DNA of 64,000 nucleotides from Nitrospirota bacterium (GCA_013152485.1 JAADGG010000041.1:30791-94790); one strand, 5' to 3'. Counted from the stretch's first letter, positions 36,421 to 46,352 are shown. The notes: generated by a model from the letters alone, not told the origin. Numbers and translations: made by a program.

Positions 36421-37410
36421 ATGAAACTTGGAGATGCCGGGGAGCTTAAGGTGCTGGAGAGACTGAGGGAACGGTTTCCCTCCGGCTCCCGCGACGTAAT
36501 CATCGGCATCGGGGATGACGCTGCAGCCCTCGATATCAATGGGCAGGCCCTGCTTCTGAGCACCGACACCATGACCGAGGGGATACACTTCGATCTCTCC
36601 CTGTTTACACCTTACCAGATCGGTTACAAGCTCGTCTCGTCAAACGTGAGCGACATTTTCGCCATGGGCGGAAGACCGAAATGGTCACTGCTGGGCATGA
36701 CGCTTCCTCCAGAGACGGACGAGGCCTTCCTCGAGGCCTTCCTTGACGGCGTATCGGATGGACTGAAGAGATACGGACTGACACTGGTCGGCGGAGACGT
36801 TACCGGGAGTACTGGTCCGCTCACCGTTTCCCTTACGGTTTCCGGCACAGTGGAAGGAAAGATCATAAGGAGATGCGGGGCTTCCGCCGGGGAAAGGGTC
36901 TACATATCGGGCCCTGTCGGAGAGGCGTCGTGCGGTTTGGAGTTTCTCAAGAGACTCGGCCGCTCCGTGAGCCTGGAGCTGGGCGAGGAGCTGCATCTCG
37001 CGGTGGAGTGGGAGAGTGTCGAACCCCTGCTGAAACGGTTCCTTCTTCCCGAGGCCTGTGACCTCTCAGAACATTCAGCCCATATAACTTCGATGATAGA
37101 CATAAGCGACGGACTGTTTCTCGACCTTACAAGGCTGTGCCGCGAGAGCTCGGTGGGTGTGAGGCTTTACGAAGAGAAGATCCCGGTGACCGGGGCACTC
37201 GAAGCGGTCTCCGCCTTTCTCGGCATCTCTCCTTACCGGTTCATCACCTCCGGCGGAGAGGACTACCAGCAACTGTTCACATCAGGCAAGGCGTTTCCCG
37301 CGTTTGCCGAGATAGGCGAGATAACGGAGACCGGCATGTATATCGTCAGAACGGACGGCTCTGAAGAAGAAATACGACCGGAAGGATACCAGCACTTTGT
37401 CTATCCGTGA
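36421..37410 (+). CDS. thiL: Thiamine-monophosphate kinase
   Basis: IGDDAAAL, the AIR-synthase-like fold, and GGEDYQQLF. Confidence 0.88.
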   Translation: MKLGDAGELKVLERLRERFPSGSRDVIIGIGDDAAALDINGQALLLSTDTMTEGIHFDLSLFTPYQIGYKLVSSNVSDIFAMGGRPKWSLLGMTLPPETDEAFLEAFLDGVSDGLKRYGLTLVGGDVTGSTGPLTVSLTVSGTVEGKIIRRCGASAGERVYISGPVGEASCGLEFLKRLGRSVSLELGEELHLAVEWESVEPLLKRFLLPEACDLSEHSAHITSMIDISDGLFLDLTRLCRESSVGVRLYEEKIPVTGALEAVSAFLGISPYRFITSGGEDYQQLFTSGKAFPAFAEIGEITETGMYIVRTDGSEEEIRPEGYQHFVYP

Positions 37411-37834
37411 CAGGCTCAAGATAATATTCAGTGTCAGGGAGACACCCAGGAAGATCGCGCTGGCATTCGCCATGGGTGTCTTCATCGGTATCTCGCCGTT
37501 TCTGGGGCTTCACACCCTGATGGCCATCGCCTTCGCCTCCGTCTTCAGGCTGAACAAACTGGTTACGCTCGCGGGGGCCTTCGTCACAAACCCGTGGACC
37601 ATAATCCCCATATACAGTTTCGCCACGTGGATAGGCATAAAGATGACAGGACACGAAAGCACACTGACTCAGACCAACTTCAAGGAGATAACGATCGTCA
37701 ACATATTCAGCATACTGAAGGAACTGATACTGCCCTTCTTCGTGGGCACGATATGCTTCGGCCTGGTGGCCGGCGCAGTCTCATATCTGTTCGTCTACTC
37801 GATAATGAAGCGGATGAGGAAGGCATCCGTATAG
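37397..37834 (+). CDS. DUF2062-family membrane protein
   Basis: TPRKIALAFAMGVFIGISPFLGLHTLMAIAFA..TNPWT. Confidence 0.75.
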   Translation: MSIRDRLKIIFSVRETPRKIALAFAMGVFIGISPFLGLHTLMAIAFASVFRLNKLVTLAGAFVTNPWTIIPIYSFATWIGIKMTGHESTLTQTNFKEITIVNIFSILKELILPFFVGTICFGLVAGAVSYLFVYSIMKRMRKASV

Positions 37835-37852: not shown

Positions 37853-38710
37853 TCACTCCCCGCCGCTCAGAGACTCATACCCGCTGATGATCTCCAGAAC
37901 CTCCGCAGTCACCTCCTCCTGCCTGACATAGTTGAACAGGGTCAAGAGATCTTCCCTCTTCCTTTCTATGTTCTGAGCGGCGGAGTCCATGCTCCTCAGC
38001 CTGCTAGAGTTCTCGCTTGCAAGGCTTTCGGCATAAGCCCTGTAAAGCGATATCAGCAGGTGTTCCTCGACGAGTCTTTCAAGCACGTCTTCCGGACTCA
38101 TGTACATCAGGGGCTCTCTCCGCATGGCCTTTCTCCTGCTGAACCTGCCTAGATCAGGCGGCAGCACGCGGGAGCTCATTATCCTGTACTCACCGAGTCT
38201 CCTGTGTAGCGCAAATACCACCGACAGCCGGTCGAAAGTCCCCTGCCTGTAAAGTTCGAACAGCTCGACGGTAAGGTTCATCACCTTGAGCTCTATGGAA
38301 TCGGCACTGACCGGCCCTTTCAGCGCCTTGAGCACCGGGATCCCCCTTGCGAGGGCCTCGTCCTGCCCTCTCCTGCCGGATATTATGAAAACGGACTTCG
38401 CTGAATCCTCGAGTCCCTGACAGTAATCGAGCAGCCGCTCGTTGAATGTCCCGCAGAGGCCCTGTTCAGAGGTGAAGACCACATACGCAGTCCTTCCGGC
38501 GTCAGGGCCGGGGGCCTCGGCAAGATATGGAAAGTGGTGCAGGACCTCCCCCATCGACTGATGGACATGCTCGTTGTACATCCTGATCGTCGGGAGCAGC
38601 TCTTCGACCTTTCTTACCGTAAGGGTCGCAAGGGCCTTCATGGAGTTTACGATCTCGTGGATCGTCTTCAGGTTCTCGATCTTGCGTTCGAGCTCCAGTG
38701 ATCCTGCCAT
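37853..38710 (-). CDS. atpG: ATP synthase gamma subunit (N-ATPase-type operon)
   Basis: Gamma-like N-terminal helix (KIENLKTIHEIVNSMKALA) and C-terminal helix (..RQEEVTAEVLEIISG), directly downstream of alpha. Confidence 0.8.
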   Translation of the reverse strand: MAGSLELERKIENLKTIHEIVNSMKALATLTVRKVEELLPTIRMYNEHVHQSMGEVLHHFPYLAEAPGPDAGRTAYVVFTSEQGLCGTFNERLLDYCQGLEDSAKSVFIISGRRGQDEALARGIPVLKALKGPVSADSIELKVMNLTVELFELYRQGTFDRLSVVFALHRRLGEYRIMSSRVLPPDLGRFSRRKAMRREPLMYMSPEDVLERLVEEHLLISLYRAYAESLASENSSRLRSMDSAAQNIERKREDLLTLFNYVRQEEVTAEVLEIISGYESLSGGE

Positions 38711-38712
38711 GG

Positions 38713-40224
38713 TCAGTGGATCCTCTCGAGGGCCTTCTCCATGAGGGACCTCAACTCTGCCTGGTGTGACTCCGTAAGGTCACCTGATGACTGTATGTCA
38801 TCGACAAGCCTGCGCCCCTCCCTTCTGATCTCCTCGAGAATCTCGGCGACATAGCCATGCACCCTGTCGACCTCTACGGCATCCAGATACCCCTCGTTGA
38901 GAATGAAGAACGTCATGACCTGTTCGGAGAGGGTCAGCGGAGAGTATCTTGGCTGTTTCAAGACCTCCCTCAACCTCTGCCCCCGCCTTATGAGTGCAGC
39001 CGTCCTCTCCTCGACTCTCGCTCCAAAGCGGGTGAATATCTCCACTTCGAGGAACCGTGCATAGTCGAGTTTCAGCTTTTCAGCCACCTTACGCATGGCG
39101 GGCATCTGGGTTTTTCCGCCGATCCGGGAGACGGAGCGCCTGATGTCGATCGGGGGCAGGATCCCCCTGTTGAAGAGCCCCCGGTCCAGGACTATCTGCC
39201 CGTCGGTTATCGATATGAGATTCGTGGAGATGTAGCCGGAAATCCTGCCCGCATAGATCTCGGCAATCGGCAACGCAGTGATGGAACCGCCTCCGATGGA
39301 ATCGTGCCTCCTTGCGGCCCTCTCGAGGAGCCTCGAGTGGATGTAGAAGACATCCCCCGGAAACGCCTCCCTGCCCGGCGTCCTTCTGAGAAGCAGGGAA
39401 AGCCCCCTGTAGGCATTGGCGTGCTTTGTAAGGTCGTCATAAACGACGAGGGCATCCCTGCCGCTGTCCATGAAGAACTCGGCCACCGCACATCCCGCAT
39501 AAGGGGCAAGGAAGCTCATTGCAGGAGAAGCATCTGCATCAGCCGCCACGACTACGGTAAACTTCATGGCATCATGCCTCTGAAGGTCTTCGACCACCCT
39601 CGCTATCTGTGCCTTCTTCTGTCCTATCGCCACGTAGACACAGATGACGTCACCGCCCTTCTGATTGACAATGGCATCGAGTGCTATGGATGTCTTGCCC
39701 GTACCGCTGTCGCCGATTATGAGCTCTCTCTGTCCGCGCCCTATCGGGAGCATCGAGTCTATTATCTTTATGCCCGTGTAAAGGGGCTCCCTGACGAAAT
39801 CCCTCTCTATGATGGAGAGGGCCTCTCTCTCTATCGGATAGTGCAACCGCTCCCCGATCTCTCCAAGGTCGTCAAGAGGAACGCCGAGCGGGTCTATCAC
39901 ACGGCCGAGGAGTCCGTCTCCAACAGGCAGCGAGGCAACCCTGCCTGTAAGCCCCACCTTGCCGCCGGCCTTTACGAGCGAGTGGTCTCCGAGTATGACG
40001 ACGTCAATAAACCTCCTGTCCATCCCGAAGACTATTCCCTGCACTCCGGCATCGAAACTGAGGAGCTCGTAGTAGCCTGCGTCCGGGAGGCCTTCGACGC
40101 GTGCAACCCCGTCACCAACGTCGGCAACAACCCCCTCCTGCGCAATGCGCACATCGAACCTCACCCCGCGCACACCGGTCTCTATCGATTCGAGCAAGCC
40201 CTCTATATTCAGCACCTCATCCAT
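38713..40224 (-). CDS. atpA: ATP synthase alpha subunit
   Basis: Alpha-type P-loop GDSGTGKTSIALDAI, plus YDDLTKHA and PGREAFPGDVFYIHSRLLER. The start is ambiguous (40224 or 40290). Confidence 0.9.
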   Translation of the reverse strand: MDEVLNIEGLLESIETGVRGVRFDVRIAQEGVVADVGDGVARVEGLPDAGYYELLSFDAGVQGIVFGMDRRFIDVVILGDHSLVKAGGKVGLTGRVASLPVGDGLLGRVIDPLGVPLDDLGEIGERLHYPIEREALSIIERDFVREPLYTGIKIIDSMLPIGRGQRELIIGDSGTGKTSIALDAIVNQKGGDVICVYVAIGQKKAQIARVVEDLQRHDAMKFTVVVAADADASPAMSFLAPYAGCAVAEFFMDSGRDALVVYDDLTKHANAYRGLSLLLRRTPGREAFPGDVFYIHSRLLERAARRHDSIGGGSITALPIAEIYAGRISGYISTNLISITDGQIVLDRGLFNRGILPPIDIRRSVSRIGGKTQMPAMRKVAEKLKLDYARFLEVEIFTRFGARVEERTAALIRRGQRLREVLKQPRYSPLTLSEQVMTFFILNEGYLDAVEVDRVHGYVAEILEEIRREGRRLVDDIQSSGDLTESHQAELRSLMEKALERIH

Positions 40225-40246
40225 GGCGGTCCGTCCAATGCCGTCT

Positions 40247-41002
40247 TCAAAGAGTCCATGTTTCTTCTTTGAGCTTCTCTGCCGCTGCATCGAGGTTTCC
40301 CCTCAGTGTGCCGTCCAGTACATGTCCGTCTATCTTCAGCCTCACCCCTGCAATGAGGGAAGGATCCCTACGTTCGACCAGGTCGACGCTGCACTTCAGG
40401 ATATTCCGGAGGGTGGACTTTATCTCCTCGGTCTGTTCGCTGCTCAATTGCGCCGCGGAGTGGACCTCTGCAGTGCACGTGCCGTCCCTGACCGTTTCGT
40501 TGAGCCTCCTCAGCTCTTCCTCCGGAAGGTGAGCGAGCCTCTCCGTCATCATCCTCAGCAGCCTTTCCTGCAGGAAGTCGTCGGAAACATCCGACAGCAA
40601 CCTCCCGGCCATCTCTACTGCAACCGAAACAACGCGTTCCCTCATCTCCTCGAGGGCCCTCAGCTTCTCCTGCCGTATGAGCCTGACCGTCTTCTTCCGC
40701 TCCGTGTCGATCTCCTGCATCGCCTCCCTCATGATCCTTTCTCTCTCCTTGAGAGCCTCAACCCTGGCATCCTCGAGATAACCGGCCTTCACTTTCTCAA
40801 GCTTTTCAAGGCCCTCTTCATACCTCTCCTTCAGCCCGTCCACCTCCCTCCGGGTTCTTTCGATATCGTCCCTCACCGTCTTTATCTCCCTCTCGCGCTG
40901 ACGGAGGATGTCTCTCACAGGACTGAAGAGGACCCTGTAAAGGATGTAGACCACGACAACAAAGTTGACTACCTCGAATATGAACGTCCAGGGATTGAAC
41001 AT
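40247..41002 (-). CDS. atpF: ATP synthase b subunit with delta/OSCP-like C-terminal region
   Basis: An N-terminal TM helix plus long coiled coil (b-like). The C-terminal DPSLIAGVRLKIDGHVLDGTLRGNL resembles the C-terminus of delta. No separate delta gene. Confidence 0.7.
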   Translation of the reverse strand: MFNPWTFIFEVVNFVVVVYILYRVLFSPVRDILRQREREIKTVRDDIERTRREVDGLKERYEEGLEKLEKVKAGYLEDARVEALKERERIMREAMQEIDTERKKTVRLIRQEKLRALEEMRERVVSVAVEMAGRLLSDVSDDFLQERLLRMMTERLAHLPEEELRRLNETVRDGTCTAEVHSAAQLSSEQTEEIKSTLRNILKCSVDLVERRDPSLIAGVRLKIDGHVLDGTLRGNLDAAAEKLKEETWTL

Positions 41003-41006
41003 GCCT

Positions 41007-41273
41007 CTACTTCATGACCAAGGATATGAGAGGATTGGCAAACAGGAGAATCAAAGAGATCACAAGGGAGTAAATAGCAACTGATTCCACCATGGCCATG
41101 CCCACGAAGAGGGTTCTGATGATCTGATTGGCTGCTTCCGGCTGTCTTGCTATGGCCTCTATGGCCTTGGTCAGTGCCTCTCCCTCCCCCCTCGAAGGGC
41201 CGTAACCGCCGATGGCAATGGTTATGCCGGCCGTCAGGATCGAAACTGCAACGACTATGCTGACTGCATCCAT
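41007..41273 (-). CDS. atpE: ATP synthase c subunit
   Basis: Hairpin protein with the ARQPE loop and the ion site VESVAIYSL. An extra Glu (E30) sits at the helix-1 position that is Gln32 in the I. tartaricus c subunit. Confidence 0.9.
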   Translation of the reverse strand: MDAVSIVVAVSILTAGITIAIGGYGPSRGEGEALTKAIEAIARQPEAANQIIRTLFVGMAMVESVAIYSLVISLILLFANPLISLVMK

Positions 41274-41292
41274 CTCACACCTCCCGATATTC

Positions 41293-41961
41293 TCAAGTTT
41301 CCGAAGCCTTTATGCCGCCTGCAATGAAGACAAGGGTCAATGCACCGAACAGGTAGGCCTGTATGACGTCACCGACAATGCTGAGCAGGATCAGGGGTAC
41401 GGGAACGATGAAACCTACGAGGAGCAGCAGTATTGCGACTATCATCTCCCAGCTCAACATGTTCCCGAACAGCCGTACCGCCATGGCTAGAGACCTCGAG
41501 ACCTCACCGAAGACATTGAAGGGCAGCAGAATGAAAACCGGCTTCGTATAGCGGCGCATATAGGCCTTCAATCCCAGATGCTTTATCCCGTAATAGTGAA
41601 CCGACATGAAGGATACAAATGCGAGGGAGGAAGCGGTCGAGAGGTCCCGCGTAGGATTATGGAGCCCGGGTATCAAGCCCACGAGGTTCAGAGATGCAAT
41701 GAACAGCCACATGCCCCCTATGAGGGGAACGAACTCCCACGGGTCCCTCTGCAGCACCCCCCTGATTGTATCGGAGATCGCCTGGTATAAGGCCTCGAGC
41801 ACGAGCTGCCGCCGCCCCGGCTCCCAGACGGTCAGCCCCCTGGTCAGAAGGGTTCCGGATACCGCCAGCACCAGCATTACACCCCACGTAGTCACCACCA
41901 CCTCCGTAACCTCCACGGGGCCGACCCTGAAGACGACTTCCGAGAAGATGCCGAACCTCAT
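41293..41961 (-). CDS. atpB: ATP synthase a subunit
   Basis: The conserved Arg region is LAMAVRLFGNMLSWE. The start was set at the internal ATG 41961, just after the atpR stop. Confidence 0.85.
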   Translation of the reverse strand: MRFGIFSEVVFRVGPVEVTEVVVTTWGVMLVLAVSGTLLTRGLTVWEPGRRQLVLEALYQAISDTIRGVLQRDPWEFVPLIGGMWLFIASLNLVGLIPGLHNPTRDLSTASSLAFVSFMSVHYYGIKHLGLKAYMRRYTKPVFILLPFNVFGEVSRSLAMAVRLFGNMLSWEMIVAILLLLVGFIVPVPLILLSIVGDVIQAYLFGALTLVFIAGGIKASET

Positions 41962-41963
41962 AT

Positions 41964-42242
41964 CTACCCTCCTAAAGAGCCGGAGCCGATCGCTTTCCAT
42001 CTGAAGATGAGCAGGTACAACGGCCTGCCCACCAGTATGCCCGGAAGAAGGAACAACAGGCACTCCCCGCCTGCCACGGCTGCAAAGAACAGGACCGCGG
42101 CAAGAGCGAGATATCTCGCCCAGAAAGTGTAGAACACCGAATCGTTCCTGCCGCGGCTGATCCTGATCACCTGCTGCCAGAGGTGCTCGTGATAGAGCAG
42201 TCCGAACAGAATCCCCAGGGACATGAACGCAAAGATTTCCAT
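41964..42242 (-). CDS. atpR: Small membrane protein, AtpR-like (N-ATPase subunit)
   Basis: 92 aa with hydrophobic segments and GILFGLLYHEHLWQQV near the N-terminus. Its position immediately upstream of atpB matches N-ATPase operons. The family call is tentative. Confidence 0.5.
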   Translation of the reverse strand: MEIFAFMSLGILFGLLYHEHLWQQVIRISRGRNDSVFYTFWARYLALAAVLFFAAVAGGECLLFLLPGILVGRPLYLLIFRWKAIGSGSLGG

Positions 42243-42248
42243 AAAACA

Positions 42249-42257
42249 ATTATATCA
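42249..42257 (-). promoter_or_regulatory. Extended -10 element (TGATATAAT) directly upstream of atpR
   Basis: The minus strand reads gTGATATAATtgttttATG, so the A of the start codon lies 7 nt after the -10. This suggests a leaderless or near-leaderless transcript. Confidence 0.35.
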
Positions 42258-42306: not shown

Positions 42307-42336
42307 TTGACTTCATCTCCCCATAACGTATACAAT
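42307..42336 (+). promoter_or_regulatory. Sigma70-like promoter upstream of tRNA-Asp
   Basis: TTGACT (42307-42312), 18 nt, then TACAAT (42331-42336), about 55 nt upstream of the tRNA. Confidence 0.4.
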
Positions 42337-42390: not shown

Positions 42391-42467
42391 GGGGTGGTAG
42401 TTCAGTCGGTTAGAACGCCGGCCTGTCACGCCGGAGGTCGCGGGTTCGAGTCCCGTCCACCCCGCCA
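42391..42467 (+). tRNA. tRNA-Asp (anticodon GTC), CCA encoded
   Basis: Manual cloverleaf. Acceptor GGGGTGG/CCACCCC, D stem GTTC/GAAC, anticodon stem CCGGC/GCCGG with loop CTGTCAC, T arm GCGGG-TTCGAGT-CCCGT, discriminator G, then CCA. Confidence 0.95.
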
Positions 42468-42584
42468 CACAATCCACAACAAAACTCCCATGTTTCATAC
42501 GTACAACAAGGCATTTGCGCCTGTTCAGGGAAAAGATCCGCCCGCCCATACCCCTGACACGCCCCTCATACCACTATTCCGCAC

Positions 42585-42618
42585 AAAAGTCACCTGTTCT
42601 TTGGAACAGGTGACTTTT
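42585..42618. promoter_or_regulatory. Perfect 15-bp inverted repeat containing a lux-box-like 20-mer (alternatively a bidirectional terminator)
   Basis: aaaagtcacctgttc-tttg-gaacaggtgactttt. The core ACCTGTTCTTTGGAACAGGT (42592-42611) has the ACCTGT-N8-ACAGGT layout. It is flanked by A4 and T4 runs. Confidence 0.5.
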
Positions 42619-42758
42619 GACGGTATTTTCGTGCTCAATAAATATGAGGGGGCGGGGAAATCGTACCACCAGGCAAAAGTAACAACTGGAATTACACCGG
42701 CACTTCAGTTGACACTTTTGTATCGATCCATGAGGGTGGATTCGTCGTCAAAAACCTG

Positions 42759-43412
42759 GTGTACGATGAAGAAAGGATTCAGGCTTACCACCTCAGGCAC
42801 AGGATATTCTGCAGAGAGCTGGGGTGGGTTCCGGGGAGGGAAGATCTCCTCGAGATCGACGACTACGACGATTATGCGGTCTTCTTCGGTGTCTTCGACA
42901 GCGAGAGAAGGCTGGCGGCATACCTGCGACTCATAATGCCGGAAAAGCCGTTCATGCTGGAGAAGGAGTTCCTGTCGCTGGTCGGCCCCGGACACAAGAT
43001 CGAGAGGAGCAGAGACAGGGCGGAGATCTCGAGGCTCTGCGTGGCGCCGGAGGCGAGAAAGAGCAGAATCGCCAGCGGCTCACGCACATACGGCATCTCC
43101 ATCTTTCTCTTCAAAGGGGTCTATCATTGGTGCATCGACAAAGGCATCCGGTATCTCTATGCAGTCACCGAGGAGAAAGTCTACAGGCTTTTCTGCGCAA
43201 AAGGTTTTCCCTACAGGCTCATAGGCGAACCGACGACAATGGCCGATGGAGTGACCGCAATGGCGGTGATACTGGACTGGAGGGAGTTCGAGGAGCTGAA
43301 TTCGGCAAAACGGCCGCAGATGCTCGAATGGTTCAGTCAACGTCGATCAGACGCTGCTCGATCGCAATGGCGACGGCATGAGTCCTGGTCACGGCATCAA
43401 GCTTTTGCATGA
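42759..43412 (+). CDS. LuxI-family acyl-homoserine-lactone synthase-like protein
   Basis: LRHRIFCRELGW, EIDDYDD, AAYLRL and AEISRLCV match the conserved R/F/W, E-D-D, R and E-S-R positions of the autoinducer synthase family. GTG start with no clear SD. The frame is open upstream to 42648, so the start is uncertain. Confidence 0.7.
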   Translation: MYDEERIQAYHLRHRIFCRELGWVPGREDLLEIDDYDDYAVFFGVFDSERRLAAYLRLIMPEKPFMLEKEFLSLVGPGHKIERSRDRAEISRLCVAPEARKSRIASGSRTYGISIFLFKGVYHWCIDKGIRYLYAVTEEKVYRLFCAKGFPYRLIGEPTTMADGVTAMAVILDWREFEELNSAKRPQMLEWFSQRRSDAARSQWRRHESWSRHQAFA

Positions 43413-44091
43413 CGTTACAGACATGAAACTTGACGGTCCGTTCACTCACCCCGAGGATCCTTGATATCTCCCACGTACTCTTGCCCTCTTTCACCCACTT
43501 CAGCACTTCCTTCTCCCTCGAAGAGAGCTGTACCTGCTTTCTCTTGTTGTCCTGTTCGACAATGCGTACGAGGACCTGATGAAAATGGGGAACGACGAGG
43601 CTCAGTATGAGCTCGGTCCTCGAGTTGTGCTCCATGGAGTCTCCGGAAAGGGAGAAGAGGCTGCCCTCGGTCTCCCTGTAGTTGCGTGCACCGTGTGTAT
43701 AGCCGTCCCTGAGGCCGAAGTCTTCGGCAAGCGAGAGGAATTCCGGAGGAGGAGGACCGTATGTCTTGTATGTATCCGACCATCTCTGCAGCTTGAACCT
43801 GGAGAAGTTTTCCTTGGCGACGGGATCTATCTCCTGATATCTCCTCGCAATATAGATGTCGATCCACTCGACTGGATAATTTATGTTTACGGGATTATGG
43901 AACTTCACAACGCCGTCCGCCTCCCTCTTTCCAAGCAGGCAGATGGCAAAATCGTAAGGGACCAGACACCTGAGTATACCCATGAGTCCGGCGAGGTCCT
44001 CTCTCGAACTGCACGAAAGGCTTCTGTGGATCAGATCCAGAAGAGAGAAGACGTCCTTTTTGGACAGCCAGCGTGTAAGCCCTGATATCAT
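43333..44091 (-). CDS. LuxR-family regulator (autoinducer-binding domain + GerE-type HTH)
   Basis: The N-terminal domain has WIDIYIARRYQEIDPV (W/Y/D ligand-pocket pattern). The C-terminal is LSSREKEVLKWVKEGKSTWEISRILGVSERTVKFH. AGGAGG lies upstream. Confidence 0.85.
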   Translation of the reverse strand: MISGLTRWLSKKDVFSLLDLIHRSLSCSSREDLAGLMGILRCLVPYDFAICLLGKREADGVVKFHNPVNINYPVEWIDIYIARRYQEIDPVAKENFSRFKLQRWSDTYKTYGPPPPEFLSLAEDFGLRDGYTHGARNYRETEGSLFSLSGDSMEHNSRTELILSLVVPHFHQVLVRIVEQDNKRKQVQLSSREKEVLKWVKEGKSTWEISRILGVSERTVKFHVCNVMQKLDAVTRTHAVAIAIEQRLIDVD

Positions 44092-44855: not shown

Positions 44856-45119
44856 TTATTCCCTGTCCTTGTCCTTCCTGATGCCTTTCATGAGCAGTCT
44901 GTACTTCTCCTCCCCGACACATTCCTTTGCAGCAGGGCACCACTCGAGACACGTGGGCTTCATCTCTCTCGTAACAACCCTTCCGCAATCATCACAGAGG
45001 GCCTCTGTCTCGTCTGACCATATTTCAACCTTGTTGCCGCAGAAGACACAGACGATCTCCTCGGGAAAGGGATTCTTTATCTCTTTGCTGCCAGGGCATC
45101 CTTCCTTCAAGTTGCTCAT
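44856..45119 (-). CDS. Small Cys-rich zinc-ribbon-like protein
   Basis: CVFCGN..(14)..CDDCG plus CLEWCPAAKEC, 87 aa. It lies 51 nt downstream of the HD-GYP regulator on the same strand. Confidence 0.5.
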   Translation of the reverse strand: MSNLKEGCPGSKEIKNPFPEEIVCVFCGNKVEIWSDETEALCDDCGRVVTREMKPTCLEWCPAAKECVGEEKYRLLMKGIRKDKDRE

Positions 45120-45170: not shown

Positions 45171-46352
45171 TCACACATCATAACGCCTCGTGCCTCCGTA
45201 ATCCCGGTGAGCATCGTAAATCTCCCTGAACATCCTGGCCGAGTCCTTGAAAGCCTCGAGCACATGCGGGTCGAAATGTTCGGGCCTGGTCCTCGTATCA
45301 CCGACGGTCAGTATGTTTACGACACTCTCGTGATCCAGCACGGGCTTGTAGGGCCGCCTGCTCCTCAGTGCATCATACTGGTCGACGATGTTCATTATCC
45401 TCCCGGATACCGGAATCTCTTCCCCCATCAGACCGTTCGGATAGCCGCCGCCGCTCCACCTTTCGTGATGGGTGAGGGCTATCTCCTCGGCCATCTTCAG
45501 ATAGGGGGACTTCGAGTTGCTCAGGATCTTTGCTCCTATGACGGTATGGGTCTTGACCAACTCCCATTCCTCGGGCGTGAGCCCCTCCTGCTTGAGAAGG
45601 ACACGGTCTGGAACACCCACCTTGCCGATGTCGTGCATCGGCGAGGCGTAGTAGATGGTCTCGATATATTCCTTGCTCATGCCGAGAGCAGATGCGAGCT
45701 CCTTTGCGTACAGACTGATCCTCTTTATGTGGGCGCCGCTGTCTTCGTCCTTGTACTCAGAGGCGAGGGTAAGGCGGTAAACCGTCTCCACATAGCCCGT
45801 CTTGATCCTCCTGTAGACCTTCTCAAGCCTCTCGAAGGCCCACTCGAGGGCTTTTATCCTCGTCGCCACCTGTTCCTCGAGCACCTGTTTGTGCTCTCTG
45901 AGAAAGTCGCGGCACTCCTTGAGCTTCAGCAGGTTCTTCACCCTGAGCGTAAACTCGATTGAGTCGAACGGCTTTACGAGAAAGTCGTCAACCCCCTTTG
46001 CAATGCCTGCCCGTCGTTCCAACGGGGAATCACAGACTGAAAGGACAACGATCGGAATGTGTTCGGTCAGCTCACTGGACTTCAGCCTCTCCACGATCTC
46101 GAATCCGTTCATGCCCCGCATGGTTACATTCATGAGGATAAGGTCCGGCAGGTACTGGAGAGTATGTTCAAACGTCTCATAGGCATCCTTCGCCACTATG
46201 GTTTCATAACCGTGGTCTTCACAGAATGCCTTCAAGAGCTTCACGTCCTTTTCATCATCGTCAACAATGAGGACCCTGAATACCTTCTCCCTATGGTTCA
46301 ATCCTGTTTTCACTATCCCCCCCTCAAAGGATCTCTTAGAAAGTTCACGCAC
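45171..46352 (-). CDS. Response regulator with HD-GYP phosphodiesterase domain (RpfG family)
   Basis: The receiver has [19 protein letters not shown]. The output domain has HDIGK and [14 protein letters not shown]. Confidence 0.9.

Follow-up and report, generated by a model that had tools for sequence, protein, structure and literature searches.

N-ATPase operons have been described as strictly conserved units that are transferred laterally as a whole, and the small number of split or partial ones on record were interpreted as degenerate. The locus analysed here, at 37853-42242 in a 64,000-nucleotide stretch of a Nitrospirota metagenome-assembled genome (MAG; GCA_013152485.1, JAADGG010000041.1:30791-94790; hereafter the window), carries six genes of an ATPase of this type, from atpR to atpG, and the genes for the catalytic beta subunit and for epsilon lie on a separate contig of the same MAG. 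N-ATPases are defined by an atpR gene whose product carries two membrane-embedded arginines, by an atpQ gene, by a c subunit with two glutamates, by the lack of a delta gene together with a long b subunit whose end resembles delta, by separate clustering in phylogenetic trees, by the operon order atpDCQRBEFAG, and by occurrence as a second enzyme (PMC2881411).

Rearranged N-type loci are already published, permuted in Persephonella marina and split in Nitrosococcus halophilus, and the arrangement reported here is an uncommon layout, not a new system. The P. marina operon, listed as an exception to the usual order, runs atpR-BEFAG-DCQ (PMC2881411). It shares with the window a start at atpR, the run R-B-E-F-A-G and a break exactly at atpQ/atpR, and differs in that DCQ follows gamma in the same operon as a circular permutation, whereas here those genes are on another contig with unrelated flanks. 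In N. halophilus one N-type locus is split in half, and Chlorobaculum tepidum has half a locus (PMC4154653). These two resemble the window in not holding the N-type set as a single operon, but atpR or half of the subunits is missing from them, and they have been suggested to be degenerate (PMC4154653); here atpR is kept, eight of the nine genes were traced in the MAG of the window and the complete set of nine in its sisters, and the genes are under purifying selection. In Nitrosophilus alvini (AP022847.1, locus L100, 3957-10363) the N-type set likewise forms two transcription units, with alpha and c subunits 56% and 80% identical to those of the window; the break lies at atpR/atpB instead, and the atpDCQR and atpBEFAG units are adjacent and divergent. 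Split operons of canonical F1Fo enzymes are common and functional in cyanobacteria, alphaproteobacteria, Aquificae and Nitrospira (PMC4154653). Like the window, they make a rotary ATPase from two or more loci, but in canonical F1Fo operons (e.g. loci L019-L098) delta has its own gene, AtpR is absent and the order is a-c-b-delta-alpha-gamma-beta-epsilon, whereas the window locus lacks a delta gene and gamma is not followed by beta or epsilon.

Open reading frames (ORFs) were called across the window and their products searched against protein family models, which gave six contiguous minus-strand genes in the order atpR, a, c, b, alpha and gamma, the order that the initial annotation had read. 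The first gene, atpR (41964-42242, 92 aa; locus tag GXO94_04140), matched PF12966 with 29.1 bits (gathering score 26), and its product is the N-ATPase-specific small membrane subunit, labelled "hypothetical protein" at NCBI. Subunit a is encoded by atpB (41293-41955, 220 aa, start MRFG), with 127.9 bits to PF00119, 192.5 bits to altF1_A TIGR03306 and a best NCBIfam match to NF009954 (262 bits); the stator arginine is retained within LAMAVRLFGN. A 318-aa ORF with a TTG start that overlaps atpR was rejected as a mechanical extension of subunit a in the ORF list. The c subunit gene, atpE (41007-41273, 88 aa), matched PF00137, with 116.6 bits to NF009998 (cut-off 116) and 112 bits to alt_F1F0_F0_C TIGR03322.

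The long b subunit encoded by atpF (40247-41002, 251 aa) matched PF00430 at residues 6-136 and the OSCP/delta family PF00213 at residues 155-244, the latter with 54 bits; its best NCBIfam model was alt_F1F0_F0_B TIGR03321 (129.4 bits, under its cut-off). There is no separate delta gene, and no ORF between b and alpha; the delta/OSCP-like C-terminus of atpF stands in for it. The alpha subunit gene, atpA (38713-40224, 503 aa), scored 667 bits to NF009884 against a cut-off of 554, and in its product the P-loop reads GDSGTGKT and the Arg-finger motif SVSRIG. This product is NOZ25263.1, identical in sequence to P0001 of the protein set; NCBI calls an alpha of 525 aa from a start at 40290, 22 codons earlier and with a 44-nt overlap with atpF, whereas alpha in JGI and in all relatives is 503 aa. 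The last gene of the unit, atpG (37853-38710, 285 aa; GXO94_04115), encodes gamma, with 176.5 bits to PF00231 and a best NCBIfam match to alt_F1F0_F1_gam TIGR03323 (154.6 bits), and is also labelled "hypothetical protein".

No beta or epsilon gene was found anywhere in the 64-kb window, and tblastn with all six proteins as queries returned no beta paralogue there. The unit is bounded upstream by a divergent, plus-strand tRNA-Asp (GTC; 42391-42467, ARAGORN), separated from atpR by 148 nt, and downstream by a convergent, plus-strand DUF2062 gene (37397-37834; PF09835, 122.9 bits). The initial annotation, made without database searches, had described these same features, namely the lack of beta, epsilon and a separate delta, the delta-like end of b, the change of strand after gamma, and the 148-nt spacer followed by a plus-strand tRNA, and all of them held.

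The six genes carry locus tags GXO94_04115 to GXO94_04140 (b is GXO94_04125) on a 130,914-bp contig. Beta (NOZ24645.1; P0133) and epsilon (NOZ24646.1; GXO94_00915) of the same GXO94 MAG are on a separate 25,659-bp contig; they were tied to the window genes by their NCBI accessions and locus-tag prefix, and atpD and atpC are placed as neighbours in the same assembly, on a different contig, because the GXO94 prefix matches and the two accessions are consecutive.

Two further hydrothermal MAGs, JAADGU01 (isolate M_MetaBat.13; locus L001) and DRKX01000139 (isolate HyVt-450; locus L002), repeat the order of the window, with an opposite-strand tRNA-Asp followed by atpR, a, c, b, alpha, gamma and an opposite-strand DUF2062 gene. 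Their alpha subunits are 87-89% identical to that of the window, their a subunits 89% and their c subunits 98-100%. The next-nearest alphas (P0004 and relatives) are 60-64% identical, with 63% for the nearest outgroup, and come from loci (L015-L017) with the intact order atpD-atpC-atpQ-atpR-a-c-b-alpha-gamma. When the beta of an intact operon of this kind was used as query, two Nitrospirae-labelled betas with 68% identity were recovered. One of these, NOY39264.1 (P0132), has an accession 62 numbers from that of the L001 alpha, NOY39326.1, and lies in a stand-alone atpD-atpC-atpQ cluster (L018) flanked by opposite-strand pilus-assembly genes upstream and by opposite-strand panC, ispG, mltG and groEL-groES downstream. 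The other, HEB75105.1 (P0244), belongs to the same 90% cluster as P0132 and is encoded on DRKX01000036 (L101), where the flanking genes are identical to those of L018; this contig and DRKX01000139, which holds atpR to gamma, are parts of one assembly, GCA_011051565.1. In both sister clusters a PF09527 (atpQ) gene follows atpC. The beta and alpha identity matrices gave the same relationships among the three genomes, with the window nearest to HyVt-450.

An assembly break was rejected as the cause of the split. In the window 22 kb of unrelated genes lie upstream of atpR, 9-10 kb lie downstream of atpQ in L018 and L101, and both contexts recur in independent assemblies. The initial annotation had proposed that beta, epsilon and AtpQ were either encoded elsewhere or lost, and had offered a split N-ATPase with its own promoter as one of two explanations. 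The results support the split: beta and epsilon (NOZ24645.1 and NOZ24646.1) are elsewhere in the window's own MAG, and complete atpDCQ clusters (L018 and L101) are in the sisters. The synteny comparison that it had suggested showed atpDCQ adjoining atpR in the intact-operon outgroup and apart from it in the sister MAGs.

Assignment to the N-type was based on gene content, family models and an alpha tree. The locus and its partner have atpR, atpQ (in L018 and L101), a b-delta fusion with no delta gene, and a two-Glu c subunit. Other likenesses to the described N-ATPases (PMC2881411) are two arginines in AtpR, the position of AtpQ (PF09527) beside epsilon in the partner locus, a Glu in both c-subunit helices together with ES..Y, and nearest relatives that are in intact N operons; the gene order within each half (R-a-c-b-alpha-gamma and D-C-Q) is preserved as well. 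The differences are that the nine genes are in two distant loci, on two contigs both in the window's MAG and in HyVt-450, that the Thr of the ESTxxY motif is replaced by Val, and that TIGR033xx scores are under the cut-offs. Of the two alpha models compared, NF009884 scored higher than TIGR00962 by 43-79 bits for the alpha of the window and for every alpha in an N-type context, and the relation was reversed for canonical alphas.

The tree, built for alpha, was generated by neighbour-joining, was rooted with beta and was evaluated with 100 bootstrap replicates. Canonical F-type reference operons (54-60% identity) came from one metagenome scan with beta P0133, which was swamped by generic beta-subunit peptide patterns and returned canonical F-type operons only. 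In the tree the alphas of the split loci formed a clade with 100% support, sister to the alphas of intact N operons at 89%, and the 16 alphas of canonical a-c-b-delta-alpha-gamma-beta-epsilon operons formed a 96% clade that excludes the split clade. Two loci close to the split clade, of a Brocadiaceae MAG (L099) and of N. alvini (L100), are N-type by their gene context. A canonical F-type identity, the outcome against which the initial annotation had set its reading, was rejected on gene content and on this tree; the tree speaks against it for alpha, as do the presence of AtpR, the fusion of b with delta and the two carboxylates of the c subunit.

Selective constraint was estimated from pairwise Nei-Gojobori ratios of nonsynonymous to synonymous substitution rates (dN/dS), with the three atpR-to-gamma loci compared with one another and the two atpDCQ loci with each other, at synonymous distances (dS) of about 0.65-2.2. 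The lowest ratios were found for c (0.008-0.016) and beta (0.03), followed by a and alpha (0.04-0.08), gamma (0.07-0.13), epsilon (0.08) and b (0.11-0.17), and the highest for atpR (0.26-0.44); for atpQ dS was not computable and no dN/dS estimate is given. Reading frames are intact in both halves, those of the six genes in all three genomes, and beta keeps the motifs GGAGVGKT, GERVREG and YVPADD.

The c subunit of the window has a two-carboxylate ion site, with E30 in helix 1 and E63-S64-V65 and Y68 in helix 2. Alignment with the I. tartaricus c subunit (PDB 1yce) placed E30 at Gln32, E63-S64 at E65-S66, Y68 at Y70 and Val65 at the position of Thr67, in agreement with the residues picked out in the initial annotation, and the two-carboxylate ring of F. 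nucleatum (PDB 3zk1) has a Glu (E32) at the position of E30. Six AtpR proteins encoded in N-type loci were aligned, and R43 and R73 did not vary among them; Arg residues of AtpR were proposed to pair with the two Glu of the c subunit, and hence to have a role in c-ring assembly (PMC2881411).

Within the 148-nt spacer the window shares two conserved blocks with L001 and L002, and the DNA between them diverges. One block, TTGACT-18-TACAAT at 42307-42336, gave 10 of 12 matches in a promoter scan and faces the tRNA-Asp, which is placed likewise in L001 and L002. The other, TGTATCAATAAGG.AT.AAAG.TGATATAATT, is invariant but for three positions in the three loci; this block ends in TGATATAAT, which is 6-7 nt from the atpR ATG in all three. 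In the window TGATATAAT reads as an extended -10-like box on the minus strand (42249-42257), 6 nt before the ATG at 42242, exactly as it had been reported earlier, and is a candidate promoter of the atpR-to-atpG unit. The two-hexamer scan made no call for an atpR promoter and found no good -35, the case for one being the conserved extended -10 by itself. Upstream of atpD, L018 and L101 share TTGCAA-17-TATCAT, which ends 6-7 nt from the ATG (L101 9965-10000). Each half thus seems to be transcribed from a promoter of its own, and the spacing of the boxes suggests that both transcripts may be leaderless or nearly so. A weak terminator-like hairpin was located by pattern scan, as a consensus match only, on the minus strand at 37811-37829, 24 nt past the gamma stop and within the 3' end of the convergent DUF2062 gene. 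The strongest terminator-like hairpin of the region in the same scan, with a perfect 16-bp stem, a 4-nt loop and a T-rich tail, is on the plus strand at 42584-42619, about 115 nt past the tRNA-Asp.

Taken together, the locus is likely to be one of two units that jointly encode a complete N-type rotary ATPase, rearranged and working, in an uncultured hydrothermal Nitrospirota lineage. An ancestral single atpDCQRBEFAG operon would have been broken at the atpQ/atpR junction, after which each half would have gained or kept its own promoter and both would have been held under purifying selection. The atpR-atpB-atpE-atpF-atpA-atpG unit would supply AtpR as an assembly or regulatory protein, a, c, the b/delta-fusion stalk, alpha and gamma, and the distant atpD-atpC-atpQ unit the catalytic beta, epsilon and AtpQ. 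The products of both loci would assemble into one N1No complex, with AtpR and probably AtpQ aiding c-ring assembly. By analogy with described enzymes, the assembled complex is most likely an ATP-driven export pump for H+ or Na+ with a two-carboxylate (E30/E63) c-ring. In the intact-operon relatives L015-L017 (12351-13992) gamma is directly followed by a Na+/H+ exchanger gene (PF00999), which overlaps the gamma stop, and then by a CBS-domain gene. The overlap suggests that the N-ATPase there may be co-transcribed with a cation antiporter, and the position of the exchanger gene after gamma hints at a possible role in ion homeostasis.

Several points weigh against this interpretation. The partner genes traced by accession to the window's own MAG were beta and epsilon, with no atpQ among them; a concatenated epsilon and AtpQ query gave epsilon homologues only and no AtpQ from that MAG. 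All subunits score under the curated cut-offs of the TIGR "alternate F1F0" exception models used (TIGR03306, 03321, 03322, 03323, 03324 and 03165): alpha 607 against 750.5, a 192.5 against 302, c 112 against 130.85, b 129.4 against 224.7, gamma 154.6 against 282 and AtpR, which was recognized by PF12966, 17 against 55.5 with TIGR03165. Because alphas of intact N operons also fall under the TIGR cut-off (P0004, 638.6; L003, 643.2), these models are taken to span a narrower branch than the whole N-type, and scores under curated cut-offs account for the name "hypothetical protein" given to gamma, b, AtpR and epsilon. In the neighbour-joining tree the N-type alphas do not form a single clade (4% with L003 and 48% without it), and those other than the split and intact-operon alphas branch basally; because N-type monophyly was not recovered, the placement of the window alpha as N-type is based on its exclusion from the F clade and its sisterhood to intact N operons. 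The coupling ion may be either H+ or Na+, since the site keeps the Ser of Na+ binders but has a Val for the Thr of the ESTxxY Na+ motif, a Thr that is likewise missing in several N-ATPases (PMC2881411), and the two-carboxylate ring of B. pseudomallei, the sole N-type ring assayed biochemically, is H+-specific (PMC5376962). Finally, that the assembled enzyme would pump ions and not synthesize ATP is something we infer from analogy.

ATP synthesis is the core of the first alternative, in which the lineage has no rotary ATPase besides the split N-type enzyme and uses it as its primary ATP synthase. No other ATPase genes were met within the 64 kb and a few contigs, the strong purifying selection on the subunits is compatible with an essential enzyme, and N-type rings, with c17 in B. 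pseudomallei (PMC5376962), have high ion-to-ATP ratios that would suit synthesis at low membrane potential; none of this is positive evidence for the reading. It is considered unlikely: all complete genomes surveyed that have an N-ATPase also have a typical F- or A/V-type enzyme, deletion of the N operon of M. acetivorans was without effect on ATP synthesis (PMC2881411), and the MAGs are fragmented, so another ATPase may escape notice. If it were true, it would break the rule that N-ATPases are always a second copy and never a synthase.

A hybrid enzyme, in which the subunits of this locus pair with canonical F-type beta and epsilon and the atpDCQ cluster has another role, is very improbable. 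Paralogous sets are normally kept from mixing by co-translational coupling, which the separation of the genes does remove, but beta and alpha have diverged in parallel from their counterparts in the intact-operon clade (65-69% and 58-64% identical, respectively), they give the same branching order within the split clade, as expected of co-evolving partners, and at least three assemblies have retained the two loci together.

Decay of the locus, with atpDCQ deleted and atpR-to-gamma drifting to pseudogenes, was the other explanation offered in the initial annotation and is the least probable of all: it would fit the lack of beta and epsilon inside 64 kb, the suggestion by Koumandou and Kossida that half or split N loci are possibly non-functional (PMC4154653), and the label "hypothetical protein" on four products, but it is rejected because the six frames are intact in three genomes at dS 0.65-2.2 and dN/dS is low in both halves (0.008-0.17, with atpR at 0.26-0.44), the complementary atpD-atpC(-atpQ) cluster is present in the same genomes and equally constrained, and catalytic and ion-site residues are retained.

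A two-unit N-ATPase of this kind adds a lineage with a conserved split, a complete gene set and both halves constrained across substantial divergence. The nine N-ATPase genes are therefore separable into two distant transcription units at the very junction that is permuted in Persephonella. Enzymes of this sort will be overlooked by annotation that relies on the operon signature or on the strict cut-offs of the TIGR "alternate F1F0" models, and operon-based counting of ATPase sets in MAGs can mislead. The view of how the enzyme works is left unchanged by the split layout.

Two further departures from the standard operon were recorded among the loci compared. A Brocadiaceae MAG (JALDQZ010000003; L099 4271-10342) has the N-type order D-C-Q-a-c-b-alpha-gamma with no called atpR, a c subunit with Leu instead of Glu at the helix-1 position, and K+ and Na+/Ca2+ transporter genes nearby. 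In a Thermoflexales MAG (SKLM01000175; L003 4602-4913) an extra 103-aa ORF is inserted between alpha and gamma of an N operon that is standard in other respects (epsilon, Q, R, a, c, b, alpha, gamma), and gamma is 333 aa long with a Pro-rich insertion.

Beyond the tRNA-Asp, the window carries a gene pair consisting of a LuxI-type autoinducer synthase gene on the plus strand (42759-43412; PF00765, 65 bits), just past the tRNA, and a convergent LuxR-type regulator gene (Autoind_bind and GerE domains) on the minus strand (43333-44091), the 3' ends of which overlap by about 80 nt. A minus-strand response regulator gene with a receiver and an HD-GYP-type HD_5 domain is located at 45171-46352. Adjoining it at 44856-45119 is an 87-aa Cys-rich ORF, which had no Pfam match and is labelled "phosphohydrolase" at NCBI.

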